Of a stretch of DNA of 64,000 nt, positions 26,720-63,424 are shown piece after piece. The DNA comes from a phage. A program made the translations under genes and the position numbers. The DNA is taken from NCBI GenBank assembly GCA_024613925.1, contig GCA_024613925.1_4713.1; one strand, 5' to 3'. Below the pieces are notes generated by a model. The model had not been told where the DNA came from and did not search any database. It saw nothing but the letters and a program-made list of their open reading frames with translations. How positions within the stretch are numbered: position 1 is the stretch's first letter; the number at the start of each line of letters is the position of its first letter.

Positions 26720-26732
26720 GATAACCTATTCG

Positions 26733-30412: not shown

Positions 30413-30523
30413 TGCATTGCCTTCCGCGAGTGTAATCAGGAAGGTAATGTAGGTTTATTTTAATCTCCATTTCGCGATGATATGACAGTCTTTATTACGT
30501 TTACCATCTGAGGGAGCATGCTC

Positions 30524-31914: not shown

Positions 31915-31943
31915 CCTCCTCTGGGAATGGAACCCAGAGGAGG
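31915..31943. terminator. strong hairpin CCTCCTCTGGG-AATGGAA-CCCAGAGGAGG between convergent genes
   Basis: 11-bp perfect inverted repeat. Confidence 0.45.
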
Positions 31944-31955
31944 ACTATGTTTGCC

Positions 31956-32264: not shown

Positions 32265-32349
32265 GGCGTACCTCAACGTTATACGTCGTTTGTATTATAA
32301 TACGCTATCGTCTCCCCGCCTGTATTAACGGGGAGTCTGCAGACTACTC

Positions 32350-34581: not shown

Positions 34582-34631
34582 ATAAACTCCTCCGATGGAG
34601 GGTGCTCGGCACCCTCCATCGTTGTATTACC

Positions 34632-38962: not shown

Positions 38963-39890
38963 GGCATGCCTCCAGGAGGTATTTCATGTTGGCTTGGAAA
39001 TCATTGACGTCACGCGCCATACGACGCTGATCCGCCATGAGACGAGCCAACACGGTATCACGGTAACCACGATCGTGGTCGGCAGCAGAGCATAAAAGAA
39101 TAAATGTTGGTGGATGCTCTAAAGCAATCCCAGCAACTTCTTTACTATAACCCCCAACCCAACTGTAAGCGGTGATTTCAAACAACAACGCCTGGGTTAA
39201 CGTGTTCAAACGGGGACTAATATTACTTTCTTTTAATGCTGTTACGAAAGCTGCCATGTTAGGGATATAACCCAGGTTTTCGGTTACGATACCGATGCTC
39301 GCAAAATCGTAACGAAGCGTTGTCTGGATGGTGCGCACCATAGTTAGTCTTTCATTATTTGTAAGGCTATCTTTAAACAAGCAAAGATAATACCATGCTG
39401 TTATGATGGCAACATCACGACGTTGTTGAAGGTCCAGCCCTAAACGTTGTGTGATTTGTCCGCTAATCCAATCACAAAAGACACGCATCGGGATAGGGCC
39501 AAGACGTTCAAAAGGACGTGTGCCCAAGGATTCCCATCCTACCTGAAGATACGCACGTGATTGAAGAAAGTTATATTCACGTTCGTTAACAACGGTAGTA
39601 CGCGATCCTGGGCGTGAAGTATCTGTTGGGGTGCGTGCGTAAGCGCGTTGGTCGATAACAACGCGCTGTCCGTCCATCACTGTTTTAATGACCAACGGAT
39701 GGCCGAAAGAAGGGATATCGTCCAACGTATTTTTGTTGCCGATGACTTCGAGAACGGGAGTGTTTACGCCACTTTCTTCACCGGGTGCACTTAACAATCC
39801 GCCGACGTAAGCAACTTCGATAGCGGTTCGGATACGGTCAATGCCTTTTAGTTTTGTTCCAACAGTTGTGTCGTAAGGAGAGATGAACAT
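38943..39890 (-). CDS. hypothetical protein
   Basis: 315-aa ORF; TTATATGCCG ~20 nt upstream of ATG. Confidence 0.45.
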   Translation of the reverse strand: MFISPYDTTVGTKLKGIDRIRTAIEVAYVGGLLSAPGEESGVNTPVLEVIGNKNTLDDIPSFGHPLVIKTVMDGQRVVIDQRAYARTPTDTSRPGSRTTVVNEREYNFLQSRAYLQVGWESLGTRPFERLGPIPMRVFCDWISGQITQRLGLDLQQRRDVAIITAWYYLCLFKDSLTNNERLTMVRTIQTTLRYDFASIGIVTENLGYIPNMAAFVTALKESNISPRLNTLTQALLFEITAYSWVGGYSKEVAGIALEHPPTFILLCSAADHDRGYRDTVLARLMADQRRMARDVNDFQANMKYLLEACRGVERF

Positions 39891-40033
39891 ATGTAATTCC
39901 TTTATTACGGCATATAAGAAAACGGGTTAAGCACACAGATTTACGCATAATTGTAATATTTTACGTTATGCCTATGACATTGTGTCACGTGTGCAATTAT
40001 GTCATACAATTTCCTTAAATTAAGGAGAGTTCC

Positions 40034-42106: not shown

Positions 42107-42121
42107 TGAGAGGAGTCCATA

Positions 42122-43012
42122 ATGCGTCCTGATAATACCCTACTCGGTGAACAGGGTGTTGGTGCTCTTAGCAACGCGGCTATGGTCGATATTCGTGCGG
42201 GTGCCCAAAACGGGTACATCAGCAATATCGGTACGTACGTTGCTAACGCCAACTACATTCCGAACCAAATGTTCTGTCTCCTGCTGGAGGCACCACGTGG
42301 TTTCAACTATCTACCTAACCCGGATGTACAGATTGGTTATCTGAAGGCGCTGGTAGAAGAGGTTGCGCATTCGATTACCGGTCTGCAACGCGGACTGGAA
42401 GTTGAATTCGTTAGCGTCCCGGTTTCTGGTTCCGGTGAAATCCAGGAAGAAGTCTCTGACGTTAAACGTCCTCGCTCTAACCCGACTTTCGGGATCTATG
42501 AGAAAGAAGGTCGTTCCGTTAGTTACTTCCTGGAACAATGGATCACGTATCTGTTGATGGATCCGGATGCCAAATATCCGATGTTGTCGTCTATCGTATC
42601 CACCGGTGGTCCAACCGACCTGCTGGCGGATTATCGTAGCGCAACAATGCTGTTCGTTGAGCCAGACCGTCAACACAAGAAAGTGGTTAACGCCTGGCTG
42701 TGCACGAACATGATGCCTCACGGTACCGGTGACTGGACATCACGTCGTAACAAGAACGATGCGCCAAACGTGGTAGAATTGAGCATTCAGTTCACTGCGT
42801 TAACACAGACCAACTATGGCGTGCGTGCTTTTGCACAACGTCTGCTGGATAAGATGAACCTGCTTAAAGTGAACCCGGATTTCCGTCCGGCTTATCTGAG
42901 TGACATCGATCCGGCTGTGGCAGCGCAGAAGGTTGGCTATACCTTCGACTTTGATAACAACGATACCTTTGAGGTACCGAATACTTATCAAAACGTAACA
43001 CCTCGCGTGTAA
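42122..43012 (+). CDS. tail tube protein (candidate)
   Basis: 296-aa ORF 15 nt downstream of sheath candidate, GAGGAG RBS, followed by strong terminator. Confidence 0.4.
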   Translation: MRPDNTLLGEQGVGALSNAAMVDIRAGAQNGYISNIGTYVANANYIPNQMFCLLLEAPRGFNYLPNPDVQIGYLKALVEEVAHSITGLQRGLEVEFVSVPVSGSGEIQEEVSDVKRPRSNPTFGIYEKEGRSVSYFLEQWITYLLMDPDAKYPMLSSIVSTGGPTDLLADYRSATMLFVEPDRQHKKVVNAWLCTNMMPHGTGDWTSRRNKNDAPNVVELSIQFTALTQTNYGVRAFAQRLLDKMNLLKVNPDFRPAYLSDIDPAVAAQKVGYTFDFDNNDTFEVPNTYQNVTPRV

Positions 43013-43039
43013 CGTAAAAAAAAAAAGCATATTAACCTC

Positions 43040-43076
43040 CCTTCCTTCCCTAGCCGTCAAGGCCGGGGAAGGAAGG
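43040..43076. terminator. bidirectional terminator: A11 tract, hairpin CCTTCCTTCCC..GGGAAGGAAGG, TTTATGGTTTATTT
   Basis: 10-bp stem flanked by A-run (5') and T-rich run (3') between convergent genes. Confidence 0.55.
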
Positions 43077-43088
43077 TTTATGGTTTAT

Positions 43089-43628
43089 TTACTGTGTGTT
43101 CTTAGCTTCACGAATGAAAATGACATCAGGATATTCTTGGGATTCAATGAATTCAGGATTACGATAACGACGAATATGACGCATCGTTGTACAAGCAAGT
43201 TTGTAAAGATGTTCCTCCTCACGTTGTGTTAATAACATCAGTTGCGCGTCTGGAATCACGAACGGGAGTCTTTCACGCACATATTCCTGAAGGTCATCGA
43301 GATCATCGTGATGAATGCCCTCTGAGAGCTTATATAACGCTTCCAGCAATTCTAATCCACCGAACTGGTAACTTCCTATTGTTGTCTTAAACAGTGCGCC
43401 AGAACGCGTGGTGGATGCTCTATCGGCGACATCGTATTGTTCTAACATATATCCGTAGACCATGCTACGTCGATCCAGTGTATCCGTAACGAGATTACGC
43501 CACCGTTCCAATCTTTCGAGCGCTTTGTCGATAGAGTAAACGATCATGCCATGTTCATCCAACTCTTCCGCAATACCCAATAGTTCGTTGTTGTTAGGTT
43601 TTGCTGCACCGATAAGAAAAACACTCAT
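43089..43628 (-). CDS. hypothetical protein
   Basis: 179-aa ORF; ATGA overlap with upstream ORF. Confidence 0.45.
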   Translation of the reverse strand: MSVFLIGAAKPNNNELLGIAEELDEHGMIVYSIDKALERLERWRNLVTDTLDRRSMVYGYMLEQYDVADRASTTRSGALFKTTIGSYQFGGLELLEALYKLSEGIHHDDLDDLQEYVRERLPFVIPDAQLMLLTQREEEHLYKLACTTMRHIRRYRNPEFIESQEYPDVIFIREAKNTQ

Positions 43629-44041
43629 TACTCAAACTCCTTATTCCAAAACTCGATTAATGAATCGAGCTGTTCCTTACTGGTTATCTCACCTCCCCTA
43701 ACAAAATGAAATCGTTCTTGAATGGCGATCTTTTCCAGGATATCGGTAAGCAAATGACGGTGACAGAAATTTCCTGCAGGACAATAACACCCTAACACCA
43801 CAACCGGATGGGAGAATAAAGCCAGCCACTCCGATGTATGATCAACAAAGCTTTTGCGCATAAGCGTGTAATAGCCTGAGGTATATTCATCCTCGGTTAA
43901 CGTTTTTGATTTGATTCCTGTAACAAGTTCCCACGATGGTGCGAAGAGTGGGTTACCTGTTTTCACCGTCGTGTCCAGTAGGAACGCTCGTGTGTCTGAA
44001 AGCCAACGATATTTGGCTAATTGAAGGGTGTATAAAAACAC
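43628..44041 (-). CDS. hypothetical protein (Cys/His cluster CYCPAGNFCHRH)
   Basis: 137-aa track ORF begins at GTG; true start uncertain. Confidence 0.35.
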   Translation of the reverse strand: MFLYTLQLAKYRWLSDTRAFLLDTTVKTGNPLFAPSWELVTGIKSKTLTEDEYTSGYYTLMRKSFVDHTSEWLALFSHPVVVLGCYCPAGNFCHRHLLTDILEKIAIQERFHFVRGGEITSKEQLDSLIEFWNKEFE

Positions 44042-44144
44042 AGCGCTAACCCCAAAGGATAAAAATAAAACCTTGACATAACCACCACCGCAACCCCATA
44101 CAGGGCTACGGTGGGGTCATACAGAGAGACGTGTTAGGTTACAA

Positions 44145-44624
44145 TCAGTCTTTCAGCAGCTCAGCCGCATACGCACTGATGTTGTCGCGAATATGCTTAA
44201 CCTGAGTTGTCGGGAAAGATTTCTTATACGCGGTGGTCAGGCGTCCGTAAACCTGTTTCTTCTCGTTAGAGCCGAAACCAACTTCAGCGCTACGTTGAAC
44301 CGTTGCGGACACAACGTCTTTGCCCAGCGGCAGGGTTACAGAAACAACGTCAACCTGTTTGTTATCCGCCATGAACTGCGCGCCAACGCGGCCAACCGCC
44401 AGACCGTGAGCCAGACCGATATCGGTGGTCAGTTTCTGTGCTTTTTCCAGGATTTCTTTTTCTTCCGGCGTTACCAGAGTACCCAGGAAATCACTACCTA
44501 ACTTCTGGCTACCAGATTCGTCCAGTTTAATACCAGCGGCGATTTTATCAGAAAGAGCCTGAACTTCCGGACGTACGTTAGAAGTGGTTTCAGTCGCTAC
44601 GGTGGTTTCTACAGCTTCAGACAT
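44145..44624 (-). CDS. hypothetical abundant early protein
   Basis: 159 aa; GGAG 7 nt upstream; early-promoter motif ~125 nt upstream; codon usage looks highly optimised. Confidence 0.5.
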   Translation of the reverse strand: MSEAVETTVATETTSNVRPEVQALSDKIAAGIKLDESGSQKLGSDFLGTLVTPEEKEILEKAQKLTTDIGLAHGLAVGRVGAQFMADNKQVDVVSVTLPLGKDVVSATVQRSAEVGFGSNEKKQVYGRLTTAYKKSFPTTQVKHIRDNISAYAAELLKD

Positions 44625-44739
44625 GTTAATACTCCAATTAGTTTTTTCGATCGATCAAAAGGATAAAATCAGAAGATTCTTTCTTCATAGGGAAAACACA
44701 AGTCGGTTAAGGTTTACTTCTTAAACTCCTTGCGTTCTA

Positions 44740-44762
44740 TCAGTTAGGTAATATAGACCTCA
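44740..44762 (-). promoter_or_regulatory. early-promoter-like motif (minus-strand GTCTATATTACCTAACTG)
   Basis: Fourth copy of conserved motif; overlaps stop codon of upstream gene 44760..45560. Confidence 0.45.
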
Positions 44763-45560
44763 ACTTTTTTCCAATAATGCCGCAACGTTCCGCGCGAAAC
44801 GAATTACCTTGTAATTGCGGGTCTGTTTGATATCTTCTTCCCCATCACTGTCACCTTCTGACGGATCTTCCCACATGAAGTCTTGTTCGTCCGCTTTCTG
44901 TAAGTAGCGGTATAACTGCACCATGCTGCGTGCGGTCGGAGAGATAGCGCGAAGCTCATCCAATTCTTCATCCGTCAACAGAACGTGCGATGAACGCAGC
45001 GGCTCCATTGTCGTATTACACAACAGACGAATCAGCAGATCGACGCACGGAATAACAGAACCTGGCGATGCGATTTCTGGATGTAACGTATAACCCCAAT
45101 ATACGGTGTTAAAATACGTCAAAACAGCAGGTAGTGACGGATGTTCCATCGCACGGCCAATTTGTTGTCTTACGATAGATGCACGATCGTTCAACACATC
45201 GAAAGTAATCTGCTGCGGTTCCATAACCGCAAGTGAAATACCGTACGCGTCAGCCACGCCCAGGATTTCATGAAGGGTCGAACGTTCTTCTTCGGCGGAT
45301 ATTGTCCCGATTGCTTTACGCCCTGCAAGGTCAATCAGCATCGGTGAAACAGCTTCTTTAACCGCATTAAAAGAAGCCTGGTAAGCGTGTTTGTGAATAT
45401 ACAGTGTCCACGCTAATGCGCGCTCAGCCGCATGAAGCAGATCGACATAAGACAGTTCTTGATGGCATGGGCCATACACACTCACAGCAAGCTTGGTGGC
45501 TTTCTCAGAGGCTTGCATAATAACATCTGGTGATTTAGGCATATCGCGTTCTTCTTGCAT
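44760..45560 (-). CDS. hypothetical protein
   Basis: 266-aa ORF; hairpin+TTTATGCCG element ~100 nt upstream. Confidence 0.5.
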   Translation of the reverse strand: MQEERDMPKSPDVIMQASEKATKLAVSVYGPCHQELSYVDLLHAAERALAWTLYIHKHAYQASFNAVKEAVSPMLIDLAGRKAIGTISAEEERSTLHEILGVADAYGISLAVMEPQQITFDVLNDRASIVRQQIGRAMEHPSLPAVLTYFNTVYWGYTLHPEIASPGSVIPCVDLLIRLLCNTTMEPLRSSHVLLTDEELDELRAISPTARSMVQLYRYLQKADEQDFMWEDPSEGDSDGEEDIKQTRNYKVIRFARNVAALLEKS

Positions 45561-50033: not shown

Positions 50034-51143
50034 TTATTTAGCGTCGTTAAAGTAAATATCAACAGCTCGTTCCGTTGCGTAGAGGAGACCAAGATTCACA
50101 GTCCCAACCACTTCCGGTGAACCGATGATACGGTTAGCGATACTGGTGCCACTGAAGATAGCATCAAGGGTGTGCCCGTCTTCGGTTTTGTTCACACCAT
50201 GACCCACGGAAGAGACAACGGATTTCGCTTGTGCTGCGAAGGTACCTTTATCACCCATCCCCGCACCAAGGTCGTAACGCATGAAAATACGGATAGCGAT
50301 CTGGTTCTCGCCTAACGGATTGCCGTCTATTCTCACGTTACTATTGTTGATACGCCCTGTTGCTGCCTCGTTGAGTTTCAGTTCCTTAACGCGTTTAGCT
50401 CGCGCTTTATCCGCTTCACCGACGAGCGCCGCCATGGTTTCACTCATATCCTCAATCTGAGCACGGTACAGTACATCGATCTGTACAACTTCACCATGAA
50501 CGTCAGCACGTGGGTTATACTGACTCATACGACGTAATGCTTCAACGGCTTCCTGACTCTCATCACTCAGATCGGTTGCAATCGGTTCTTCCAGTGTTGC
50601 AAGAATCGTTCGTGGTTCAACGTGATCACCGATTTTCACAAGACCACGAATATTGAGATGGGCGTCAACGATGAGCGTACGGCTCTTAATCGATGGTGTT
50701 ACGAGACGATCGGCAAGATTGTCGAAGATATACGAACTGTCCTCGTGCGTCTCTGGAATATCCAGAATACCGACAAGAGACAGCACACCTGCGCGCCAAA
50801 CAACCTGGCCTGGGTTCCACCAATCGCGTTTGAAATAAAGACGATGGAAAACCACCACATCCTGATCCTTAACGCGATCCCCGACTTTATAATCGGTAAT
50901 GAGATCGTGAGGATAATACTTACCTGGCCCTTTCCCGATTATCGTACCGAGCTGGAAAACCTCTTCCCCTAACTCTGGATCGTCGTATTGTATCGTAAGC
51001 GCAGTTTTGGTGACCTTCTTAACAACACCATCGCCTTGGGCGGCGGCCGCGAAGAGTTTACCAACACGATGCGCGATAACAGTCTCACCGCCGGTGCGCC
51101 ACGGTTGTACATCGTAACCCTCAGCGGCAATCATGCGGTTGTG
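50034..51143 (-). CDS. RNA polymerase beta subunit (virion RNAP candidate), proposed exon 2
   Basis: Track ORF 50034..51164 starts at TTG with no RBS; from HNRMIAAEG it resembles beta ANRALMGANMQRQ, then TGGETVIAHRVGKLFAAAAQGDGVVKKV vs [26 protein letters not shown], and GDKGTFAAQAKSVVS vs GDKMAGRHGNKGVIS (E. coli beta recalled). Confidence 0.5.
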   Translation of the reverse strand, partial: HNRMIAAEGYDVQPWRTGGETVIAHRVGKLFAAAAQGDGVVKKVTKTALTIQYDDPELGEEVFQLGTIIGKGPGKYYPHDLITDYKVGDRVKDQDVVVFHRLYFKRDWWNPGQVVWRAGVLSLVGILDIPETHEDSSYIFDNLADRLVTPSIKSRTLIVDAHLNIRGLVKIGDHVEPRTILATLEEPIATDLSDESQEAVEALRRMSQYNPRADVHGEVVQIDVLYRAQIEDMSETMAALVGEADKARAKRVKELKLNEAATGRINNSNVRIDGNPLGENQIAIRIFMRYDLGAGMGDKGTFAAQAKSVVSSVGHGVNKTEDGHTLDAIFSGTSIANRIIGSPEVVGTVNLGLLYATERAVDIYFNDAK

Positions 51144-51656
51144 CTGTATACCTATAAATACCAATCTCTTGGGCGAATTTAGTTCTTATTCAACATAATC
51201 GTACTATTACCAGAATAAGACTGAGATTAGATTGTTCAGATAAGGTCGTTAATCTTATCCCGGAGGCGACGATAGGCACATCACCTCCCGCTTGCGCTCT
51301 CACGCAAGAGCAGACTATATCACATCTCGTTTCAAACGGTGCTTCTTCAGCACCTCAACGAGAGTTCACTTCTTCCCAGCGCATCCAGCGCCATTCTCTT
51401 ATCCAAGGAGAATGCCTCACTCGAGGGGTACAGGGGGATGAATCCCTTAGTCGTTGAACCTTTACCTTAGAACGCTTCACAGCGATCCTTAGGTACTTGG
51501 CTGCGGATTGTCCTTAAGCTATTATCTGTTTTTATAACCATACCGTCTTTCTTTTCAGAATCCGTTTTGGTCGATAACAGCGATGGATGTCTTCGCAATT
51601 CAGTGAATCTCATCTACATGTCGCCACATAGACGGACCCTGCTATTAAAAGCGTTA
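51144..51656 (-). ncRNA. candidate group I intron in RNAP beta gene, inserted at conserved HDD/ANR motif
   Basis: 513 nt with no ORF; minus-strand P AAUUGCGAAGACAUCC (~51583-51602), Q AAUCCGCAGCC (~51495-51513), R GUUCAACGACUAAGG (~51436-51466), S GUGAUAUAGUCUG (~51305-51326) in order; UUGCG/CGCAG and GACUA/UAGUC complementary; exon 1 ends in U followed by UAA; G precedes exon 2; splice keeps frame (..DRDD-HNRM..); P1 pairing not identified. Confidence 0.5.
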
Positions 51657-54600
51657 ATCATCTCTATCAGCAGCAGGTACTGCAAGCGCCGACGTACTCA
51701 TTATTGACGAGCTACCATCCGTTTTCTCGTCGTAAGGTTTCGTTTCACCGTATACAGACACAATGTTTGCGTTAGGTGCGAGGTAAGCAGAAATACCTAC
51801 GTCCCCACTATCCTTCGTACCTTCGGATACAACACCAATGTCCGACTTGTCGTATTCACGATCGCGTGCGCGTCGAAGCGATGTCTTTGAACGACCCCCG
51901 ATACCGGTCATCGTCGCTTCTTCACCCTGCTTGATATCCAGCATCGGGTTGGTTTCATCGATTACGATGGAAGCGCTGTCGTCGAGAATCTGGTTCCAGA
52001 CGCTTACCGGACTGATTGAGATTTTCTGGCGGTTTCCTTGACTGCTGTTCTCATTCTGACGAATAGCGCCAACCAGATCCTTATACACCAACTCAGCGAA
52101 CTTATCGTACGTTTTAAAACGTTGGTAGTTCACATCGTTCGTGTTAGGTGCCCAATCATCCAGAAGCAGTTCGACGGCACGCAGTAACAACATGGCGAAA
52201 TCGGTAGGTTCTCCCATGTTCTGCAGCAACGTACGGCTTACCGGATCAACGAAAAGACGCTCCATGAGTTCAAGTTCGCGTAAATGGCGAACCTTAAGTC
52301 CAGCCCCATCGACAACGTTAAAATAGATATCTCGATTGTCAAAAGCGCCGCGAGCGTAACCAATGTAGTTACGGTATTCGTTAAACCCACCCAGCAACAA
52401 CGTCGTCATGCGATCGTCTTTACTGAAGATCAGACTTTCGTCGTCAAAGCTCACCGCGAATTCATCGGGTGCTAACCCCATACGAGAGCCGCGAGGTACC
52501 GTACGATAGTTCGCTTTAAGATGTTCTAATAACGGGGTAAGCCCACCCAGATAACTTAGAACAACACCGACCGGAATACGTACACCCATGAATTCAAGAT
52601 CGGCGGCTTCGATCGGCATCTTAGCCGCATTGATACCGAAGAAATCAGGGAACGTCCCTACAGGTGTTGGTGTTTGTCCTGACTGACAGATATAGAGCTG
52701 ATTGCGTTTATCGATTGCTAAGAATTCACCCAGCGTGTTACGCGCAAACGTCAGGAGTCCTTCGGCTAACTGTTCGTTGAACCGATCTTCCCCAATGAAC
52801 TCCGGCAATGTCTTTGTATCGAGACGTATATCCCAATCAGCAAATTGGATTTGGGTATAGTTGCGTGCAAGCACAGCGAAGTAATACGGAACTTTGACAG
52901 CTGGATCAAAGACGTTACCACGTTTCAACGTGGTTAAGGGTGAGGACTTATCGTAATACATCGCCGTAAGTTGACGTGTTAGCCAACGACCCGCATTATT
53001 AACGACACGCTCTGAACGTTTAACAAACACCTTACCGTAGGCGGTACTCAACGCAACTTCAGATGACGATACCTTTCTAATAGGTTTATCAACACGTTGT
53101 TTACGCATCCGGTATTTGATGCCGTTAACGACATAAATGCCGTCCTTACGAACCTTCGGCAACATCACCGGGAACGTGGTCGGGACACCGCCTACAGGAG
53201 CCAGTTTAATCGTGATGACTTGATAATCCCCCATCACGTCAACAACATCTTCAACTTTATATCCCGTGACAGGGTAACCTGCCTGCTGTACCGCAACGAC
53301 GGCAGCTGCGATGTCCTTTTGCATTACGTGTTCAACGTAATGTTTATCCCACACCGCAAGCGTCGATTTACACAGGCTCTTATCGACGATAACATCCGCT
53401 TCCGGCATAACCTTTGCAGGCGCTAATTTTGCGGCTTTTGGTTTAACTTCAACATACTCAGCAAGTGTTAATCCAGAACCGTCGGGTGCTTCGATTTCAT
53501 GGATGGCGTCAGCATTACGCATCGCTGCTTTATATTGGACACCGCTTAACTGACCCGCATCCGCCAGATCGCTCGCGCGTACCAACACCGCATCCGATAA
53601 CGACTGAATATATTCGCCATGCGTTTTCGGTAACGTTGCCGCGTCAAAGACATCAACCTTTTCTTCTTCGGTATCGTCGGTAACGACTTCGAAGAGATCG
53701 TCGGTAATGTCCTGATCTTCATCGGGCTGGAAATCTGGTTGTACTTCTACCCCGGGTACTTCACGGACATCTTCGAACGAGCGTTCTACAATGGCGTTCC
53801 ACGCATCGGCATCATCGTCTTCATCCGACCCACCGACCAACTCCGCTTCTAACTCGTCGGGATCAAGAACGGTAGCGAGATCCTCACCGTTAGGAAGCAC
53901 GACGTCGCGATCATCATACTCCGCATCCGGGCTGTCCGCAAGAATATCTCGCTCTTGACGAAGAACCTGTTCCTCTTCTTGTTTCTGTTCTTCTTCATTC
54001 GCGCTCTGCGACCACAGACGTGTTACCGCCATCATCCAACGACGTTGGAAGGTTTCAAGTGTCGTTTTATCGAGTTCTTCCCCTTCCTTCACAAGTCCGG
54101 TACGCCATTCTTCCAGCAGGCCGAGATTCAGCGTAAAGAAGTACACACCGTCTGTAAATACGATGTTAAGCTTATCCAGCGTGGCTCTGTCTAACGAAGC
54201 CATCGTGCTGTTCTCACGATCGGTTCCCAACCAGCGGAAGAAGTCAAAGAACGACAGCTCCTCCGGTGTGGCGAAATTCATGAGGTTATTACGGGTCGGT
54301 GCCTGTTGCGTGGTACGCATCAACGAAATCTTCGGCAATGTTGACGGTATACGGAACAACAAAAAGTGTTGGCGATCGCTTTGCTGTGCGATTTCGTTGG
54401 CTTTCGACCAAATTGTTTTACGTACGTTGAACCATTCATCATACCAACGGGTGAGCGTTGGACGATAAATGTACATGTGGTTAAGATGCGCGTAGTTAGC
54501 AACGATCTGAGCGTTGATGTTTTTCTCCACCGTGCTTAGATCGGTAACCAAACGAAAACGACGATGTGATGCACGATAATCCAATTTCGCTCGTGGGAGT

Positions 54601-54863
54601 TGGAATCGTTGATCACGTCGAGGTGCACCCTGTTTGGTTGCGAGATCATCAGCAAACGAAATCCATAGTTGAGCACTTTCTTTACTCAGCATGTATTCGT
54701 TTTCTGGAGGACCTATCAATGAAGGATCCGTTGCGGTGTAATGATAGACAGCATAACGCGGCAGCTGCAATAGCTGCACTAAACGTAATCTTGGTGATAG
54801 TAACTCTTGGTAGCGTCTGACACCAAACTGTCGGTAGTAATCAAGGTATTTAAGTTTTGCCAT
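51657..54863 (-). CDS. RNA polymerase beta subunit (virion RNAP candidate), exon 1
   Basis: 1069 aa; C-terminal DETNPMLDIKQGEEATMTGIGGRS resembles beta Rif-region [24 protein letters not shown]; ends ..SALAVPAADRDD like ..ASLIPFLEHDD; AGLKVRHLRELELMERL resembles VGLVRVERAVKERL; GGAG RBS; long acidic insert. Confidence 0.5.
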
Positions 54864-54866: not shown

Positions 54867-56513
54867 TTAGGCTCCACGAGGTCCCGTTAAGTTGCGTAAT
54901 AGGAACGCAACCGTATCGTAACCAATATCAATGTTGAATTTATTTTTACCACTTACCCAGAAAGCTCGCTTCTTGTGCGAGTTGGTAATTTCGTCAATAG
55001 CTTCCATGGAATAAAGAACGTTAACCGAGACCGTATCACCGTCGAAGTCCGCCCCGAGGCCAGCTAGAAACACCTGGCCGACTTGGGTCGTTTCTACAAA
55101 TGACGCTTTCAATGACCAATCTGGGTATTCCCATGCCATATACCGATCGCCTTCTAACGGTTGCCAATCGACACCGAGTTCTCTTCTTGGCTTCGTGTTA
55201 ACTGTCGTCCGCACATAGCAGGTTAACGGTATAACTGATTGCATTCCCGATACTGGATAACGTGTCACCATCGCACCGAGTTTATTCCAAAGATGATAAC
55301 CGCTCAGATAAACCAATTCGCAGTATGTAACCGGATGAACATTAGCGCCAGGTTTGTTCAGCATCTCTGGGGGTATTTCACTCATGCCACGGAATAACCG
55401 AAACGAATCGTTGTTCACATAGACGAGGCAAAGATAACGCCCATTAACCATGATAGGTTCGTTACGCACACCAGGATCGCTTAGCGTGTTCAGTAAACGT
55501 TCGATACCGTCCCACGTTGTAAAGTCATCGATGGTATCTGGGTCTAACGTGACGCGTTCACGTTCCATCGTTTCGGTATCGATAAGCTCAGCTTCAGTAA
55601 CATCACGAACAAATATTTCCTGCAAAATCCCCGTACGTAATGCGTGCTGTGTGATAGGAAGAGCAGCCTTGCTCATCTGATATAGACCAAGTTGTACTGA
55701 TGTACACGAAGTCTGGTTCGGTGAGCCGAGAACCTCTGTAGTTGGGATGACAGCCGAAATAACGTTACGGGTTGAGTTCCAAACGCGACGTGAACCGAAC
55801 TTCCCTTGGAAGATCCCTTTCTTACCTTGGAACATATCCAACAACAAAGCGTAGATATCGTTGAATGTTCTCTGTAAGCTCCAGCGCTGGCCGTCGTAAA
55901 CGGGATCGGAATAATCTTTTAATCCATCAGGGACGGTGTTAGAAATTGCAAGGAAACGACGATACAACTCCGTGATTTCTTGCTCGCTTTCATACCCGCC
56001 TTCTTTTACTTCTATTTCACGTAAGCCTGCAGGTAATACCAGTAAGTGACGGGTCATCGCTTTGAACATGTTCTCTTCGACAACTTTAATTCGTAGCTCT
56101 CGTTGAGCTGAACCCGTTGAAACGAACTTGATATCCGCGACGTGTTGTGCAAAGAACCCGTATCCTGTTTGTCCTGTTAACGCATCAGACGCAACGAAGT
56201 CGCGTTGTTCAGGATCCCAACGAGCATACGCCTTTCCCGACATGATATCACCATAGAGGTGTTTTAGTCGAATGAGGCGGTCGTAAATGACAGGGTGCAG
56301 GATTTCAACCTTGCATTCAATCACCGCAAATCGACGGTCTCGATCTTCACTACCTGCACTACCAAAGATGGTGTAAGAATAGAAACCATCATCGTGGAAA
56401 TTACCGGTGCTTGGGTCACGAATGCTCATGCTCGTGATCTTGGGGAGAAAACGTAACTGCTGTTTATCGAGGTGTAAAATACTAATGTTAAACGGCTCTC
56501 TGACTTTAGCCAT
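54867..56513 (-). CDS. RNA polymerase beta-prime N-terminal fragment (virion RNAP candidate)
   Basis: Contains intact catalytic motif GADFDGDTVSV (NADFDGD family) and GKKGIFQGKFGSRRVWNSTRNVISAVIP matching [24 protein letters not shown]; track ORF trimmed to ATG (MAKVRE..) with GGAG 8 nt upstream; adjacent and divergent to giant lysozyme-domain gene as phiKZ gp180/gp181. Confidence 0.6.
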   Translation of the reverse strand: MAKVREPFNISILHLDKQQLRFLPKITSMSIRDPSTGNFHDDGFYSYTIFGSAGSEDRDRRFAVIECKVEILHPVIYDRLIRLKHLYGDIMSGKAYARWDPEQRDFVASDALTGQTGYGFFAQHVADIKFVSTGSAQRELRIKVVEENMFKAMTRHLLVLPAGLREIEVKEGGYESEQEITELYRRFLAISNTVPDGLKDYSDPVYDGQRWSLQRTFNDIYALLLDMFQGKKGIFQGKFGSRRVWNSTRNVISAVIPTTEVLGSPNQTSCTSVQLGLYQMSKAALPITQHALRTGILQEIFVRDVTEAELIDTETMERERVTLDPDTIDDFTTWDGIERLLNTLSDPGVRNEPIMVNGRYLCLVYVNNDSFRLFRGMSEIPPEMLNKPGANVHPVTYCELVYLSGYHLWNKLGAMVTRYPVSGMQSVIPLTCYVRTTVNTKPRRELGVDWQPLEGDRYMAWEYPDWSLKASFVETTQVGQVFLAGLGADFDGDTVSVNVLYSMEAIDEITNSHKKRAFWVSGKNKFNIDIGYDTVAFLLRNLTGPRGA

Positions 56514-56758
56514 GGAGACACTCCTCTTTACCACCACCGGCTGCGGCGGTATCATCTGAACACACGAGAGACGTAATGGGTGATGGCGTCACCCATCGCT
56601 TCCTTGCCTGATGCCAGGAAGTTATTAGGTTACGTGCCTGCTTGATAAAATCAAGCAGGCGATGTGTGAAGTTACGCTTCAACATTATCAATGCCGAAGG
56701 TAAGCTTCGTGCATCACGTTCCAACGTAACATGGGAACGTATCGAACTGGAGGTATAC

Positions 56759-59700
56759 ATGGTAGATAAAACCCGTGTTGAGGGTGATGATAATTGGGAT
56801 AACTGGGATGATGACTTCTCCCTGGATCTCGATTTTGATGAGCCTAAAGACGATCGTAAGCCAATAACACGCTTTGCGGTAGGGGCGGTTAAAGGTGCTG
56901 CTGAGGATCTTACTTCCTACGAAAGAATGAAGGAGATCGCCAGAAACGCATTGCCTAAGGGCTACAGCGACGGTATGGATCTTATTGATTCCGCCGTCGG
57001 ATCCACGAAGGAACTATACAATGAAGCCGTTCGTGACGTTCTTCCTAAGGTCCAAAGCTCAAAACGGTTAGCAGCACAACTAACCAAGAAATACCGTGCG
57101 AGCATGCCCGATTTCTCGAAGAAAATTCTCGAGCAATGGGAGCGAGAAGCCAAGGAAGAAGACGAACGTAAACAGGCTGAAGCAGAACTCAAGCAACGCA
57201 TGGCGAGCGCGGGAGATAATGAAATCGCCCGTAAGGTTGCCGAAGCGTTAGGCGAATCAGCAAACCAAAGCGCGGATCAGTTTGCCGAACAGCAAGCAAA
57301 AGAAAGTATCCGTGACGATATCGCTGACAAACGGTACGCTGTAACCAACAAACAAATGAGTGCGATGCAAGAAGGCGTCGCCAAGATGGTTGGTTTCAAC
57401 AATGAATTCGCTGCGCGCTACATGCGTAAAAGCCTGGAACTGAAATATCGTTCCTTAGCGATTCAACGTGCAAGTTTTGATCAGCATAAAAAGTTAGCCG
57501 AAGTCTATATCGGTTTATTACAAAACATCCAGAAGAACACGGCTTTACCTGATGCGGCTAAAGCGAAAATGTCGGAAGAATTCCGTCGTAGTGCATACCA
57601 ACGTTTCTTTGGTAATACGTTAGATGCGATGAGTTCTTTCGAGAACCGTTTCTTTGCCGATGTTAAGAAAAACCTATCCAGGAACATCGTCGGAGCTTTA
57701 TCGGGATTCGCTGAAAGCAGTCGAGACGCACTGTCTGGCCTCGCCGAAGTGAAAGACGGTATGTCCATGATGGATGGAATTGGTTCGGAAGGCGATATAA
57801 AGGAGATGAAGGGGAGAATGCTGGGCCAGCTTATCGGCACGGCAGTAACCCCATGGCTTGCCGAGAAAGGATCGACAGCACTACGTGATTTTGCAAAACG
57901 CCATCCTAACTCAAAAATCGCATCCGCAATAAAAACCATTGATGCTGGTGGCGATGCGGCCGCATTTACCAGTCGTAACATCGGTAAAATTCTTCAAGAG
58001 GACATTCGGAAAAACCAGTTTAATCTCAGCGATCCGTGGTATAAACGTTTCTTACGGGATACCGGAAGCATGATGTTCAACATGGACACCGGACGTAACT
58101 TCCGTGTGATGAACGACACCGCTGAAACACTGGCGGAGCAAACGTCTTTCGACGGTTTAACTTACCGCAGCATCAATGAAGTTATTCCTGGTTTTCTTGC
58201 ACGCATTCTGAAAAGCAGTGAAGGCATCCGTACGGGAAACAGCGATCCTGACTACGAGGTCTATGACAGCATCAGCGGGCAATTCGTGGCTCAGCGCACG
58301 CGTGAACAAAGCGTCAATGACACGCTGTTTAACAAACGTACATTTGGTTATTACGCCAGCCGTTTCAACGAGGTTATCTCGGTCATCGATCCCGATAAGA
58401 AATTATCGGATAACGCAAGAAAAGGATTAGCAAAACAGCTAGCTCGTGACAGCGACGCAAACATTGCATTCGACCCGGCTCGTTTTACGGATGAAAGCAA
58501 CTTCGATCGTAGTATCGACCGTGACGCTATTAAGGAACTTTCTAATTACTTCCGTAACCGTTACGGTATCGACTACGTACCCGATGAAAAAGGACAACGC
58601 CATCAGGTCATTGGAAACCGCGGGCAATATTACACGGAACGTAACCGAGCTGACCTTCGCTACGGTAATTTGAAATCGTTACAACCGGATATCCAGCGTA
58701 ACCTTAACCTACTGAAACGTACTGGTGACGTCCAATATCTGGAACGGATTGGGATTGTAACGAGAAATAGCGACGGAAGCTACTCGGTTAATCACGATCG
58801 GTATTTCTCTGAAATCGATCGATACATCGACCGACCGGAGTACGCTGAACGCAGTGATGTTAATACGCGATTAACCGCTCAGGAAACAAGAGCGCTGGCG
58901 CTGGGTTATCGTGACGCAAAACCATCAGTTGATGACGTGCAAAATGCGGGTCGGCCACACATCGATCGTAAGGCTGTTGGAACAGTAACCGTTGATGAAA
59001 ACATCGGTTACGATAAATGGTGGAACGACACAGGTGTTATCACCACATCGCTTGAAGAACAGAATCGAGCGTGGCAAGAGCTTTATCTCGAAGCGTTATC
59101 TGAAGCATCCGAACAACGTACTGAAATGCTTGCGTTGCTGAAAGCCATTTCTGAGAAAGACTGGTCTAATAACGTTTCGTTGGATGGCGAAGATGTACCT
59201 GAAGGTGCGGCACCCATTTCATTTATCGATCGCGCCAAACAAAAACTCGGTGCACGCAACCTCTTTAAAGGCGGTCGTAATCTCCTCTGGAAAGGAATTA
59301 AAAATACCGCACGTCTGGGTGTTAAAGGCGCACGCTGGGGTGCAGAACGCACGTTGGGCAGTTTGGTAAATTCTGGCCGACGCATTATCAATTTCAACCG
59401 TTTTGTGTTCGGTGCATTATCCAAGGTTGATCAGGTTCCGTTTGACATTTACGTTAAAGGGGAATCCCAGCCACGCATATTGGCTGCCAAACTTCGTCAG
59501 GGGTTATACTTCGACGAAGCGACAGGAAAAGCTGTAAAACGGATGAAGGATATCAAAGGTCCACTCGTTGATGCGGATGGAAATATCGTAATCAGTAACG
59601 AGGATATCGAGAAAGGGTTGGTCACTCGCGCTGGTCGTGCCTTTGAGAATTCAGGACTTAAGGCGTGGGCACGTGAAGGTCTTAATGGAATCACAACGGT

Positions 59701-62700
59701 ATTAAGTCTGCCACGGATGTTAAAACGCGGTGCGGTCGAGATCTACAAACAGCTTGACAAAACACCCGACGTTTACGTCAAGGGAGAATCAACGCCTCGT
59801 CTGTTGTCCACGGTGTTAGCAGCGGGTGGGTATTTCCGTCGGTCGGATGGACAAGTCATCAAAAATCTTGAAGACATCGATGGTGATGTTGTTGATGCAC
59901 AAGGTAACGTCGTACTTACGCTTGCCGATATGCAGAAAGGACTTGTCGATAAATACGGTAAAGCGGTTCGTCGCTTAAAAGAAAAGCTCATCAACTTCGG
60001 TGTAAAAGCTTTTACGTTACCGTTAACGCTGCTGCGTAAGACGAAGGACATCCTTAAAGCCCTTCCAGGTAAAACCGTTAACGGTCTACGACGGATGGGA
60101 TTAAATTTCCAATCACCTGACGCATTACTGGTGGGAACAACGTCGAGCATGGTAGATCGTCTCGATGCGATTTATAAGCTCCTCGACCAGCGTATGCCGG
60201 GAGGCGATAAGGATTACCGCGATTGGAATGGCGATGGTGTTCGAGAAGGATCGTTGGAAGACCTGAAACGTAAGCGCGCGGCCAAGGAAAACGGTAAGGA
60301 TGACACCGGCAAAGATTCCGGTAAAGGAGAAGAAAAGGAGAAGAAACGAGGATTACTCGGAAGCCTTTTCGATATGCTTGGCGATACCGCATTAGGTAAA
60401 CGACTCATGGCGAGTCCGCTTGGAAAAATTCTAGGTGGTCTTGGGGCGGTGTTAAGCGGCGGAGCATCGTTAACCGGATTGTTGGGTAAGGGTCTCATTA
60501 GTGGAACCGGCGCGCTAGTCAAGGGAGGACTAAGTGTGGCAGGATGGTTAGGACGTGGTGCGTTAATGGCGGGCGGGGCCGCATTGAACGCCGTTGGTGG
60601 GTTATCGGGATTAGGTGCATTCCTCATCTCACCTGTTGGGCTTGCTATTGCAGGTGGTGCATTGGCTGCTTATGCTGGATGGAAGATCTATCAGCATTTC
60701 GCCGAGAAGCCTGACCCGATGCAGAAGCTCCGTCTTATTGCATACGGTGCAAAAGGGGACGATAAAGACTTCAATAAGAAGCTGCTTGCGACAGAAACAT
60801 ACCTCACCGACCATGTGGTTATGACCGGGGATACCATCGGATTCGATCCGAAAGCCGATTCTGAAAAGATTCTCGAAATCTGGGAATTGTCCCTGGAAGA
60901 TTCCGACCGAATGAACGAATGGAAACGCTGGTATCTGCATCGTTTTATTCCTGTTTTCGCTCGCGCGTACAAACTCTGGAAAGAGCATATGCCGGACGAG
61001 AAGAAATACATGGAAATGGATAAATATCCAAACGGTGAGAACAAAGTGAAATGGTCGGAAGCGTTTATCTGGCCTTCCGATAGTCCTGACGGTCCGTATT
61101 ACGTCGAAGCTAACCCGTTGGGTTCTTCTGGTGCGACGCGTTATATTGCTGGTCAAGACGTCAAAACCTTGATGCTGAAACAACTCGAAGCCATCAAGAA
61201 AGAGTACCAGAATCAGATCAAACAATACACTCATGATGAGGCTATTGCTGATTGGTCACGGATGTCTGACACACAACGTAAATCCGTTGCGCCTAACGCA
61301 TTACGCGGTCAGAAAGCGTCGTTACGTTTTAACGATAAGCGTTACAACAGCGCTGGCGCTAAAGGACGACAGAAGCTTGACGCAACCGCCGTTATTGAAA
61401 GCGTAGACCGCCGTGGTAGGAAATGGGTTGCTGGTGGATACATCGATGAACTCACCAGTCTCCGTGTTCGCGCGTACGGTATCAAGGTTCCGTTGTTAAG
61501 TCAGATAAAAGTGCTGATGGAACTTGAAGACGCCGTAGAACCCGGCGTTGTCGCTGAAGGTAAAGGTGTTAAATACGGTGGCGATCTTGTTGCGCTCTAC
61601 AAGAAATTCGCGACGAAGTTCGGAAGAGACGTTAACAGCAAGCGGGATCAGGATATCTGGTTTGCTTGGATGAATAACCGTTTCCTACCCGTCTTTTTAA
61701 CCTACTACCAACAAGTTAGCGAAATGGGCGGTCAAGGTCTTCTGTCCGACGTGGTACAGAACCTGAAAGACAGCCAACGTTGGGAAATCGGTGAAGCACT
61801 TGTCGCAACGCAATACCGTGATGAGAAAGGTACACTGCAGCCTGTATGGTCCTGGAATAGTTGTGGTTTCTCCGGTACTGAAGCTAACACCATCAGCAGT
61901 TCAACAAAGAGCCAACTCGATCTGTTAAAAGAATATGCGGATAAAGAGAAGGTTCGTGAGAAGAACGCGGAAGCATCGCAAGAGGATACCGATAAATTAT
62001 CGAAGATCCAAGAGCTGATGATGAAGCAGGCTGGGTACGAGAAGAAAGACGGTGTCTGGCAGAAGAAATCTCGCATTACCGGCGGGATGAGTAACTCCGA
62101 AGCGAATTACAACCCCAGTGGGAATAGGGTGGGTGAAAGCAGCTTTACGGCTTCGGCTACCTCCAATGCGGGATTAGGGTCAACCGGCGATGTTACTGGA
62201 TTGCCTAACATGGGCTTACAGAAACCTGCAACGGGACCAGGTCCTGAAGCTGGACGTCGTGCGCTTGTTAAATCCGCTGTAAAACGCGGCATTACCGATC
62301 CAATGGAAATGGCGATGTTCCTTGCGAATATCGAACATGAATCGGGGAACTACACTCACGTACGTGAGGGGAACTATAAGACACCAGAGCGTCTTAAACA
62401 GGTCTTCCCTTACAAATTCCGTGATGTGCAGGATGCCGCACAGACGATCAGCATGGGGCCGGAAGCGGTATTCGAACGTGTGTACGGTAATCGTAAAGAT
62501 CTCGGAAACACACAGAAAGGGGACGGGGCGAAGTATTTAGGGCGTGGCTTCATTCAGGTTACCGGTAAAGCTAACTACGCTCGTTTGTCTAAGACCTTGA
62601 ATAAGGATCTTGTCAGCGATCCGACCTACCTGGAAACGCCGGAAGGTGCAGCGGAAGGTAGTGTTGCATGGTGGCTCAACCGAGGTAACGTATTACGCGA

Positions 62701-63424
62701 TCCCGCAAAACGGGGTGACGTACGCCAAGTTCGTTATCTGGTTAACGGCGGCTATAACGGATTACGTGATGTTGAACAACGTTCTGCTTATTGGATTCAG
62801 GCGGCTAAGAACGGCACCCTGAAGAAAATGATGGACGAGTTATCAGGGTCAACATCGGACGATCAAGCTGAAGGACCGACCACTGCCGAACAGGTGAAGA
62901 ACGAAGCAGCACAAGAGGCAAACGGAACACCTGCTGTAAGCAACGATCCGCAAGCTCCAGCGCCTTCTACCACCCCTGAAGCTAAACCGTCTGCGGCTGC
63001 CGGGACGGCTCCAGCGCCAGGAGAAGCATCGCCGACACCTGGAAGTTTCGAAACAGCAAAAGCCGCGGCAGGACAACCGACATCAACTCCAGCACCTAGC
63101 GATTTGCCGTCAAACCCGGGCGCAAATCGAGGGATATCGGTTCCGAATACGCCTGCACAGGTTGCGCAGTCTGCGACACAAACATCGGTTGCAAGTGAGA
63201 ACTTCTACGGCAGCGCAGGTGAAATTCTCCGACAGCAGCTGACCACACAGCAGAACATCGAGAAGAACACCGGTAGAACCAATGAACTTATTTCGGAATT
63301 AATCCAAGCCGTTAAAGGTTCTTCTATCGGTAAGGGTTCTGCAGGTCCTTCTCAACAACAGACGATGTCGCTACCTAATCGTCCGCAAGGAATCTCTCCA
63401 ACACGGACAAGGTACGCACAGTAG
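56759..63424 (+). CDS. giant virion-associated protein with glycine-rich membrane-like segment and GH19-type lysozyme domain (phiKZ gp181-like; tape-measure/cell-puncturing candidate)
   Basis: Track ORF begins at TTG (56642); ATG at 56759 has GGAGG 6 nt upstream; ~2221 aa; lysozyme motifs FLANIEHESGNY ... GDGAKYLGRGFIQVTGKANY; Gly/Ala-rich hydrophobic stretch ~100 aa; internal ~106-aa tandem repeat (YVKGES.PR.L...); Pro/Thr/Ala-rich linker near C-terminus. Confidence 0.6.
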   Translation: MVDKTRVEGDDNWDNWDDDFSLDLDFDEPKDDRKPITRFAVGAVKGAAEDLTSYERMKEIARNALPKGYSDGMDLIDSAVGSTKELYNEAVRDVLPKVQSSKRLAAQLTKKYRASMPDFSKKILEQWEREAKEEDERKQAEAELKQRMASAGDNEIARKVAEALGESANQSADQFAEQQAKESIRDDIADKRYAVTNKQMSAMQEGVAKMVGFNNEFAARYMRKSLELKYRSLAIQRASFDQHKKLAEVYIGLLQNIQKNTALPDAAKAKMSEEFRRSAYQRFFGNTLDAMSSFENRFFADVKKNLSRNIVGALSGFAESSRDALSGLAEVKDGMSMMDGIGSEGDIKEMKGRMLGQLIGTAVTPWLAEKGSTALRDFAKRHPNSKIASAIKTIDAGGDAAAFTSRNIGKILQEDIRKNQFNLSDPWYKRFLRDTGSMMFNMDTGRNFRVMNDTAETLAEQTSFDGLTYRSINEVIPGFLARILKSSEGIRTGNSDPDYEVYDSISGQFVAQRTREQSVNDTLFNKRTFGYYASRFNEVISVIDPDKKLSDNARKGLAKQLARDSDANIAFDPARFTDESNFDRSIDRDAIKELSNYFRNRYGIDYVPDEKGQRHQVIGNRGQYYTERNRADLRYGNLKSLQPDIQRNLNLLKRTGDVQYLERIGIVTRNSDGSYSVNHDRYFSEIDRYIDRPEYAERSDVNTRLTAQETRALALGYRDAKPSVDDVQNAGRPHIDRKAVGTVTVDENIGYDKWWNDTGVITTSLEEQNRAWQELYLEALSEASEQRTEMLALLKAISEKDWSNNVSLDGEDVPEGAAPISFIDRAKQKLGARNLFKGGRNLLWKGIKNTARLGVKGARWGAERTLGSLVNSGRRIINFNRFVFGALSKVDQVPFDIYVKGESQPRILAAKLRQGLYFDEATGKAVKRMKDIKGPLVDADGNIVISNEDIEKGLVTRAGRAFENSGLKAWAREGLNGITTVLSLPRMLKRGAVEIYKQLDKTPDVYVKGESTPRLLSTVLAAGGYFRRSDGQVIKNLEDIDGDVVDAQGNVVLTLADMQKGLVDKYGKAVRRLKEKLINFGVKAFTLPLTLLRKTKDILKALPGKTVNGLRRMGLNFQSPDALLVGTTSSMVDRLDAIYKLLDQRMPGGDKDYRDWNGDGVREGSLEDLKRKRAAKENGKDDTGKDSGKGEEKEKKRGLLGSLFDMLGDTALGKRLMASPLGKILGGLGAVLSGGASLTGLLGKGLISGTGALVKGGLSVAGWLGRGALMAGGAALNAVGGLSGLGAFLISPVGLAIAGGALAAYAGWKIYQHFAEKPDPMQKLRLIAYGAKGDDKDFNKKLLATETYLTDHVVMTGDTIGFDPKADSEKILEIWELSLEDSDRMNEWKRWYLHRFIPVFARAYKLWKEHMPDEKKYMEMDKYPNGENKVKWSEAFIWPSDSPDGPYYVEANPLGSSGATRYIAGQDVKTLMLKQLEAIKKEYQNQIKQYTHDEAIADWSRMSDTQRKSVAPNALRGQKASLRFNDKRYNSAGAKGRQKLDATAVIESVDRRGRKWVAGGYIDELTSLRVRAYGIKVPLLSQIKVLMELEDAVEPGVVAEGKGVKYGGDLVALYKKFATKFGRDVNSKRDQDIWFAWMNNRFLPVFLTYYQQVSEMGGQGLLSDVVQNLKDSQRWEIGEALVATQYRDEKGTLQPVWSWNSCGFSGTEANTISSSTKSQLDLLKEYADKEKVREKNAEASQEDTDKLSKIQELMMKQAGYEKKDGVWQKKSRITGGMSNSEANYNPSGNRVGESSFTASATSNAGLGSTGDVTGLPNMGLQKPATGPGPEAGRRALVKSAVKRGITDPMEMAMFLANIEHESGNYTHVREGNYKTPERLKQVFPYKFRDVQDAAQTISMGPEAVFERVYGNRKDLGNTQKGDGAKYLGRGFIQVTGKANYARLSKTLNKDLVSDPTYLETPEGAAEGSVAWWLNRGNVLRDPAKRGDVRQVRYLVNGGYNGLRDVEQRSAYWIQAAKNGTLKKMMDELSGSTSDDQAEGPTTAEQVKNEAAQEANGTPAVSNDPQAPAPSTTPEAKPSAAAGTAPAPGEASPTPGSFETAKAAAGQPTSTPAPSDLPSNPGANRGISVPNTPAQVAQSATQTSVASENFYGSAGEILRQQLTTQQNIEKNTGRTNELISELIQAVKGSSIGKGSAGPSQQQTMSLPNRPQGISPTRTRYAQ

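Follow-up and report, generated by a model that had tools for sequence, protein, structure and literature searches.

Genes of two multisubunit RNA polymerases with predicted group I introns in a Goslar-like jumbo phage

A stretch of phage DNA of 64,000 nucleotides (nt), contig GCA_024613925.1_4713.1 of NCBI GenBank assembly GCA_024613925.1 and hereafter the window, very probably carries genes of two multisubunit RNA polymerases (RNAPs), and two of the three genes concerned would need self-splicing. The gene at 54867..56513 would supply the N-terminal half of beta' (beta'-N) of a virion polymerase and the next gene downstream its beta subunit. By analogy with phiKZ and with Goslar (Escherichia phage vB_EcoM_Goslar, NC_048170), this enzyme would be packaged in the head, be injected with the DNA and transcribe early genes. 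A second beta'-N gene, beginning with the open reading frame (ORF) at 12420..13675, would belong to a non-virion polymerase that is synthesised in the infected cell and serves for the transcription of later genes within the phage nucleus. The beta messenger RNA (mRNA) is predicted to lose one group I intron, located after the motif DRDD, by self-splicing, and the non-virion beta'-N mRNA two group I introns around an exon of 13 nt that encodes DGD. Their position in catalytic motifs may be explained by the invariance of such sites, which makes them targets for HNH homing endonucleases.

The two-polymerase scheme of phiKZ-like phages has been textbook knowledge since 2014-2015, and the pair, one enzyme packaged and the other not, has been annotated and studied in Goslar. 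The core finding is known; the moderately interesting part is the corrected gene model and the pile-up of introns at a catalytic motif. The analysis provides a three-exon model that corrects the non-virion beta'-N gene. It also provides a comparison set of four near-identical genomes with six differing intron sites in three polymerase genes, which makes intron-mediated competition testable in a phage of E. coli. As read from the sequence, an exon as short as 13 nt, placed between two predicted self-splicing introns, would encode residues essential for catalysis. Very divergent polymerase genes, missed by Pfam, were recognised by reading the sequence.

Virion and non-virion polymerase genes

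The product of the virion beta'-N gene matched the family phrog_2986 from end to end (E-value 8e-178) and phiKZ gp180 in BLASTP (38% identity, E 3e-103). A single-sequence search of the Protein Data Bank (PDB) gave weak matches to the beta' chains of Bacillus phage AR9 and of plastids (E 4e-4 to 4e-3). A profile made from a six-sequence alignment of the family, A3, matched 91 distinct PDB sequences, and all 60 of the 60 matches listed were RNAP large-subunit (beta' or gamma) chains. The best solved structure was the non-virion beta'-N of AR9 (7S00 chain d, E 8e-22), a distant relative and a phage of a different host group, and the E. coli and plastid chains followed at about 1e-11. The motif GADFDGD is contiguous at residues 487-493 and, within it, D489, D491, G492 and D493 are invariant in A3, with F or Y at residue 490. 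The protein has no zinc-binding cysteines; this motif is absent from the whole virion family, so its absence is no disqualifier. By mechanical calling the ORF extends to an ATG at 56555, but the start at 56513 in the original prediction is right, because the ATG there has a Shine-Dalgarno sequence, AAGAGGAG, 8 nt upstream and because both the phiKZ gp180 alignment and the annotation of Goslar gp205 start at this point.

Gene order around the virion beta'-N gene is that of phiKZ gp181, gp180, gp178, gp177, gp176 and the head protease, so that synteny extends over phiKZ gp175-gp181. The phiKZ annotation lists gp178 and gp180 among the structural proteins of the head. The window proteins align over their full length to gp180 and gp178, with identities of 38% and 29%, respectively, and synteny is identical. 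The intact DFDGD that had been noted beside a beta gene (phrog_3148) and structural genes is confirmed. Goslar, phiKZ and the IMG/VR contig UViG_3300045988 have an intron exactly at GxD/FDGD (a slash marks an intron insertion site or a splice junction), where the window gene is contiguous; in phiKZ, gp180 is interrupted after GAD by an intron that bears gp179.

The first exon of the non-virion beta'-N gene matched PDB 7OGP_A, the solved non-virion beta'-N of phiKZ (gp55), with an E-value of 4e-62, AR9 beta' with 3e-8, and positions 1-419 of the 478 in phrog_2987 with 2e-117. The zinc ribbon predicted for it holds, as all four cysteines are invariant in the alignment of the non-virion family (A4). 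The CxCx12CxxC spacing is presumably equal to that of the zinc-binding domain of E. coli beta'. The neighbouring gene, directly upstream, was a chimallin candidate and matches Pfam accordingly (Table 1); Goslar gp246 is annotated as the nuclear shell protein, and chimallin followed by beta'-N is the order of phiKZ gp54-gp55. The window phage is a nucleus-forming, chimallin-encoding, phiKZ-like jumbo phage. Both beta'-N ORFs were confirmed on the minus strand, and in formal profile searches each of them, not one only, showed homology to RNAP.

The two beta'-N proteins are barely comparable by BLASTP (E 0.33). Aligned as profiles with hhalign, they match with 93% probability (E 3e-7) over a segment that ends at the conserved GKKG...TRNVI(S or T). 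Both families are represented in similar numbers of phage records, about 307-309, and in the same genera. The assignment of 54867..56513 to the virion enzyme and of 12420..13675 to the non-virion enzyme, as in the original prediction of a phiKZ-like pair, is supported by orthology to phiKZ gp180 and gp55, by synteny at both loci and by published data for close relatives. In particular, mass spectrometry of virions detected Goslar gp205 and gp207, orthologues with 92-95% identity, as two of the five subunits of the virion RNAP (preprint, bioRxiv 10.64898/2026.04.21.720040).

Several observations weigh against this reading. Pfam, run on nine large ORFs, found chimallin and a DNA polymerase and no RNAP domain in the three RNAP proteins, and single-sequence PDB searches with both halves of beta found nothing relevant. 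The other subunits of both enzymes, including the non-virion gp68, gp71-73, gp74 and gp123 types, lie outside the window. A scan of ORFs of at least 250 amino acids (aa) in 1..45560 against PHROG found no further RNAP gene, and the ORFs at 45843-49699 and 56642-63424 were judged by synteny. With just three RNAP genes in the window, the full subunit sets are not countable there, and the two beta'-N proteins might serve one polymerase as alternative subunits, or one of them might be a non-functional duplicate. We consider this extremely improbable. Each protein is the 1:1 orthologue of a subunit of a phiKZ enzyme that was separately purified or solved (PMC7598289), nearly identical sets of about 300 phage genomes have kept the two families, both proteins retain the full aspartate triad, and the Goslar virions hold gp205 and gp207 among their polymerase subunits.

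Table 1 Polymerase genes, predicted introns and neighbouring features of the window.
Feature	Position	Strand	Evidence
Virion RNAP beta'-N, 548 aa, no intron	54867..56513	-	orthologue of phiKZ gp180 and Goslar gp205
DFDGD codons, Mg-binding aspartate triad, residues 489-493	55035..55049	-	read from sequence
Virion RNAP beta exon 1, 1069 codons, end ...AVPAADRDD	51657..54863	-	phrog_3148 positions 2-1050/1424, E 1e-290
Predicted group I intron of beta, 483 nt, no ORF, in DRDD/PKR (E. coli beta EHDDANR region)	51174..51656	-	Rfam RF00028
Virion RNAP beta exon 2, 379 codons and stop, start PKRLVFIGIQHNRM	50034..51173	-	phrog_3148 positions 1055-1420/1424, E 2e-118
Non-virion RNAP beta'-N exon 1, end ...GYNADF, Phe codon split TT/C	12420..13675	-	PDB 7OGP_A, phrog_2987
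Zinc-binding motif C57-x-C59-x12-C72-x2-C75	13451..13507	-	read from sequence
Predicted group I intron 1, 378 nt, no ORF	12042..12419	-	Rfam RF00028 and guide pairing
Predicted micro-exon CGACGGTGACGCT, 13 nt, (F)DGDA, two of three catalytic aspartates	12029..12041	-	profile gap and motif restoration
Predicted group I intron 2, 355 nt, no ORF	11674..12028	-	weak Rfam match, covariation and phiKZ homology
Predicted exon 3, 74 codons and stop, start MNNHIVPD	11449..11673	-	phrog_2987 positions 424-475; Goslar gp185
Chimallin (phage nucleus shell protein), directly upstream of non-virion beta'-N	13768..15663	-	Pfam PF25677, E 4e-28
phiKZ gp181-like large tail-associated protein, divergent neighbour of virion beta'-N	56642..63424	+	synteny with phiKZ gp181 and Goslar gp204

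Predicted splicing of the non-virion beta' gene and of beta

By its sequence, the non-virion beta'-N gene is composed of three predicted exons, with two group I introns flanking the exon of 13 nt. The original prediction had placed introns in conserved motifs of the virion beta and non-virion beta' genes; the motifs were right, and the number was not, as the non-virion gene has two candidate introns and not one. Unspliced, the first ORF has 423 aa and reads ...GYNADF-SFFQ, followed by a stop at 12404, with the predicted 5' splice site at 12420. Intron 1 has a guide sequence, CCGUCG-GGAUCUG (12362..12374; CCGUCGGGAUCUG), which adjoins P1. It forms 7 of 7 pairs with the 5' exon CAGAUUU, with a U.G pair at the splice site, and 6 of 6 pairs with the 3' exon CGACGG (P10). 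The last base of this intron is G, and the micro-exon follows directly and in frame. It fills exactly the four profile positions (420-423) that are left between the ORFs of exons 1 and 3, and it restores NADFDGDA as found in intron-less homologues. Goslar and UViG_3300045988 have this micro-exon as well. The pattern GAYGGNGAY has only 17 occurrences in 128 kb, counting both strands.

Intron 2 has a 5-bp P1 hairpin with a U.G pair, and its last base is also G. Its 3' half and tail have clear homology to the intron of phiKZ gp55 (75.6 bits with the Rfam group I model RF00028), and its homologues in a second IMG/VR contig, UViG_3300011560, score 28 and 26 bits. An alignment of four sequences gave 105 pairs, with 98.3% of cells paired, that comprise P1-P9 and the P7 pseudoknot and support a complete group I fold. 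Pairs changed on both sides numbered 33, against 1-2 in slid controls, in a set of which three sequences are effectively distinct and from which the structure itself was derived. For P7 there are three different sequences, all of which pair. No further intron was found in the window at E up to 0.1.

Exon 3 is placed by phrog_2987, which aligns from Met6 of a 79-aa ORF, directly after DGDA, and by a gap-free alignment to phiKZ DGDQLNLTLMPD. The predicted spliced junctions are GATTT/CGACGGTGACGCT/ATGAAC, or ...GCAGATTT/CGACGGTGACGCT/ATGAACAAC at greater length, and the junction peptide is GYNADFDGDAMNNHIVPDIWTAK. Joined in this way, the coding sequence has 1494 nt, is in frame and encodes 497 aa, reading GYNADFDGDAMNNHIVPD, and the predicted product aligns without gaps to phiKZ NADFDGDQLNLTLMPD and to the intron-less homologues. 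The NADFDGD triad of the non-virion copy is present only once exon 1, the 13-nt exon and exon 3 are joined. A contiguous homologue that spans at least 80% of the spliced protein is found in 251 of 307 phage records. A single long intron, 12419..11674, was rejected, since its product would be without DGD.

Points that weaken the three-exon model lie mainly in the scores. Intron 1 reached 44.6 bits with RF00028 (E 4e-8 for the whole window) and intron 2 reached 17.6 bits (E 0.03, scanned alone, full-model alignment), both below the gathering score of 50, and the covariation set is the small one described above. From the sequence and from relatives we infer that splicing and packaging take place, when each polymerase is used, and where precisely the 3' end of intron 2 lies. 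The gene could be unspliced, either a pseudogene truncated at NADF or naturally split into proteins of 423 aa and 79 aa, as the Goslar annotation, with gp247 and gp185, would imply, and the DGD 13-mer would be a coincidence. The in-frame stop after NADF-SFFQ, the ATG of the 79-aa ORF itself and the two sub-threshold scores would fit with this, and there are known cases of jumbo-phage RNAP genes divided between separate polypeptides (PMC7598289). An unspliced gene is nevertheless very improbable: its product would be without two of the three catalytic aspartates, and the 13-mer, with its rare GAYGGNGAY pattern, stands in frame right after a terminal G and pairs 6/6 with the guide. Moreover, compensatory change in intron 2 is strong, the 251 contiguous homologues read through the junctions, and three other genomes reach the same 497-aa protein by different layouts (two identical, Goslar one residue off).

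Within the three-exon model, exon 3 could start 12 nt earlier, at CTG 11685, so that intron 2 would be 12028..11686 and the protein, of 501 aa, would read DGDA-LNTT-MNNH. This CTG follows a G, is in frame and would give DGDAL, as in Eowyn and Xoo-sp14. Such a start is unlikely, as it makes a 4-residue insertion relative to every homologue and the PHROG profile puts Met6 of the ORF straight after DGDA. In addition, CUGAACACUACG has its homologues in intronic sequence, in the tails of the introns of phiKZ and UViG_3300011560, and the matching tail in UViG_3300011560, TTGAAGATATTG, is without a usable frame context. Our first model of exon 3 had used CTG 11685 and was replaced by ATG 11673 on the grounds of PHROG register, gap-free alignment and homologous intron tails.

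The virion beta gene was found as two ORFs, 51654..54863 (1069 aa) and 50034..51164 (376 aa), which together correspond to the single 1448-aa gp207 of Goslar. BLASTP of exon 1 against phiKZ gp178 gave E 4e-145, and the alignment ends at D1072 of gp178, equivalent to D1069 in the window, where phiKZ reads EHDD-PKR without interruption and the window gene has its predicted intron. This intron scores 56.2 bits with RF00028 (E 1.4e-11), above the gathering score. A convincing P1 helix was sought and none was found; the boundaries rest on the intron-less Goslar allele, that is, on its uninterrupted gp207, and put G as the last base of the intron. The predicted splice junction is GATGAT/CCCAAG, and the joined protein, ...DRDD followed by PKRLVF..., has 1448 aa, the length of gp207. 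A profile of the EHDDANR region of beta, built from two sequences, had RNAP beta chains as its only PDB matches (Taq beta, E 5.5e-6).

The intron of PhiPA3 between gp211 and gp209 has the identical insertion site, after the second Asp of DD in virion beta. It carries an endonuclease gene, gp210, and the window intron carries none. The HNH endonuclease gp210 nicks phiKZ gp178, and experiments in PhiPA3 and phiKZ have identified this position in beta as a site of homing (PMC11620839, Birkholz et al. 2024).

The codons of beta that flank the intron (51657..51670 and 51150..51173) differ heavily from those of Goslar, in most third positions and mostly synonymously, while the surrounding gene is about 95% identical. 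The window reads GAT AGA GAT GAT/CCC AAG AGA TTG and Goslar GAC CGT GAC GAT GGA AAA CGT CTG, with one residue changed, P in the window and G in Goslar. This looks like a co-conversion tract, left by a divergent intron donor during homing.

Intron sites among Goslar-like genomes

Megablast of window positions 51000-57000 and 8000-20000 found Goslar as its sole match, with 94.1% and 97.3% identity, respectively, and the equivalent of the window is at about 156-221 kb of the Goslar genome. By sequence the window phage is Goslar-like and distinct from Goslar itself. Two more Goslar-like contigs, neither identical to the window, were reached in IMG/VR through a protein search. A 'distant' blastn search of intron 2 against phage genomes gave only Goslar and short core matches. 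We compared the window, Goslar, IMGVR_UViG_3300011560_000001 and IMGVR_UViG_3300045988_173921 at six sites in the three RNAP genes (Table 2). Assembled from its exons and with the stop included, the non-virion beta'-N of the window is matched at 497/498 positions by Goslar and at 498/498 by both UViG_3300011560 and UViG_3300045988.

Table 2 Predicted introns at six sites in the RNAP genes of four Goslar-like genomes (+, intron; -, no intron).
Gene and site	Window	Goslar	UViG_3300011560	UViG_3300045988
Non-virion beta', Tyr codon T/AT	-	-	-	+
Non-virion beta', NA/D	-	-	+ (72% identical to intron 2)	-
Non-virion beta', F codon TT/C	+ (no ORF)	+ (HNH gp186, 1440 nt)	-	+ (no ORF)
Non-virion beta', DGDA/M	+	+	+	+
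Virion beta', GxD/FDGD	-	+ (2044 nt, HNH gp206)	-	+ (~510 nt, no ORF)
Virion beta, DD/P	+ (483 nt)	-	+ (403-aa HNH/NUMOD1 ORF)	+

In these E. coli phages, about 95-97% identical, introns are predicted at four positions inside GYNADFDGDA/M, as many as three of them in succession, and the micro-exons left between them measure 13, 13 and 18 nt. UViG_3300045988 (stretch L020, 5244..6365) has three group I introns (365, 376 and 355 nt) and two 13-nt exons, ATAATGCAGATTT and CGACGGTGACGCT, within GYNADFDGDA; the first two of these introns score 30.3 and 46.5 bits in Rfam. UViG_3300011560 (L019, 5252..5976) has an intron at NA/D, then an 18-nt exon, GACTTTGACGGTGATGCC, and then the homologue of intron 2. 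In this contig the exon before the intron 2 homologue ends in GCC, which would give a C-G pair at the splice site instead of the usual U.G. Both of its insertion sites share ACGCY/ and the guide GGC, and this sharing suggests that one intron family may have spread to a second site nearby.

Goslar shares with the window 94-97% nucleotide identity, gene order, and the two introns and the 13-nt exon of non-virion beta'-N. It differs in having the HNH gene gp186 inside intron 1 and an intron with HNH gp206 at D/FDGD of virion beta'-N, both lacking in the window, and in a beta gene free of the intron that the window has. In intron 1 of Goslar an extra 1065 bp, with gp186, are inserted at the point that corresponds to 12043-12046 of the window, near the 3' end of the intron. 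HNH and NUMOD1 endonucleases lie in the corresponding introns of relatives, and the window introns are endonuclease-free. The 403-aa ORF in the beta intron of UViG_3300011560 (L021, 13936..15147) matches NUMOD1 and the I-TevI DNA-binding domain and, weakly, HNH_3, and is probably the homing endonuclease for the DD/P site.

The Goslar record marks one Intron_gpI per locus. Its annotation lets gp205 read 27 codons into the intron and leaves the second exon, of 60 codons, unannotated. The non-virion gene is split there into gp247, gp186 and gp185, with exon 3 as the hypothetical gp185 and with the 13-nt exon and the second intron missing, and 'RNA polymerase beta subunit' is the name given to the beta' genes.

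The phiKZ orthologue, gp55 with gp56.1 (7OGP chain A), also lies next to chimallin and has a group I intron in NADFDGD, the core and 3' tail of which are homologous to intron 2 of the window. It differs in having one intron, at N/ADFDGD with HNH gp56, where the window has two endonuclease-free introns, at NADF/DGD and DGDA/M. In Erwinia phage pEa_SNUABM_54 the non-virion beta' motif is interrupted at NADFDG/D by an intron with a 334-aa ORF, and across these phages there are at least six intron positions within about 30 nt of coding sequence. It is moderately probable that independent group I introns have piled up at the NADFDGD codons of non-virion beta' and that this pattern is the footprint of an ongoing contest of introns and endonucleases among co-infecting phages, as between PhiPA3 and phiKZ. 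Intron mobility is here what we infer from sequence comparison.

HNH-bearing introns have been reported for phiKZ gp55, gp71-73 and gp180, for 201phi2-1 gp273/274 and for PhiPA3 gp209/211 (PMC7598289, PMC11512511, PMC11620839). A literature search of incomplete coverage, and hence weak evidence of novelty, found no description of tandem introns or micro-exons in phage genes, of the Goslar introns or of polymorphism among Goslar-like phages.

Other features of the window

At 55087..60000, in the virion beta'-N gene and the first part of the gp181-like gene, identity to Goslar and the IMG/VR contigs is only 90-92%, against 95-97% in neighbouring regions. This divergence may mark a local hot spot of recombination or diversification beside the intron site. 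A further Goslar gene annotated as 'RNA polymerase beta subunit', gp171 (in the Goslar stretch 153597..155765), lies directly outside the left edge of the window, and this edge therefore runs through a region that holds further polymerase subunits. The terminase large subunit (743 aa, 32350..34581, minus strand) matches terminase PHROGs at residues 9-212 only, with no match beyond them at E up to 1e-5. Inside the gp181-like ORF, 57490..57595 on the plus strand resembles, below threshold, the leader of ribosomal protein S15, RF00114 (25.8 bits, gathering score 39.5, E 0.075), a match that is repeated at the equivalent place in stretches L021 and L022 of the relatives (32.1 and 28 bits) and is probably due to chance or to a conserved local hairpin.

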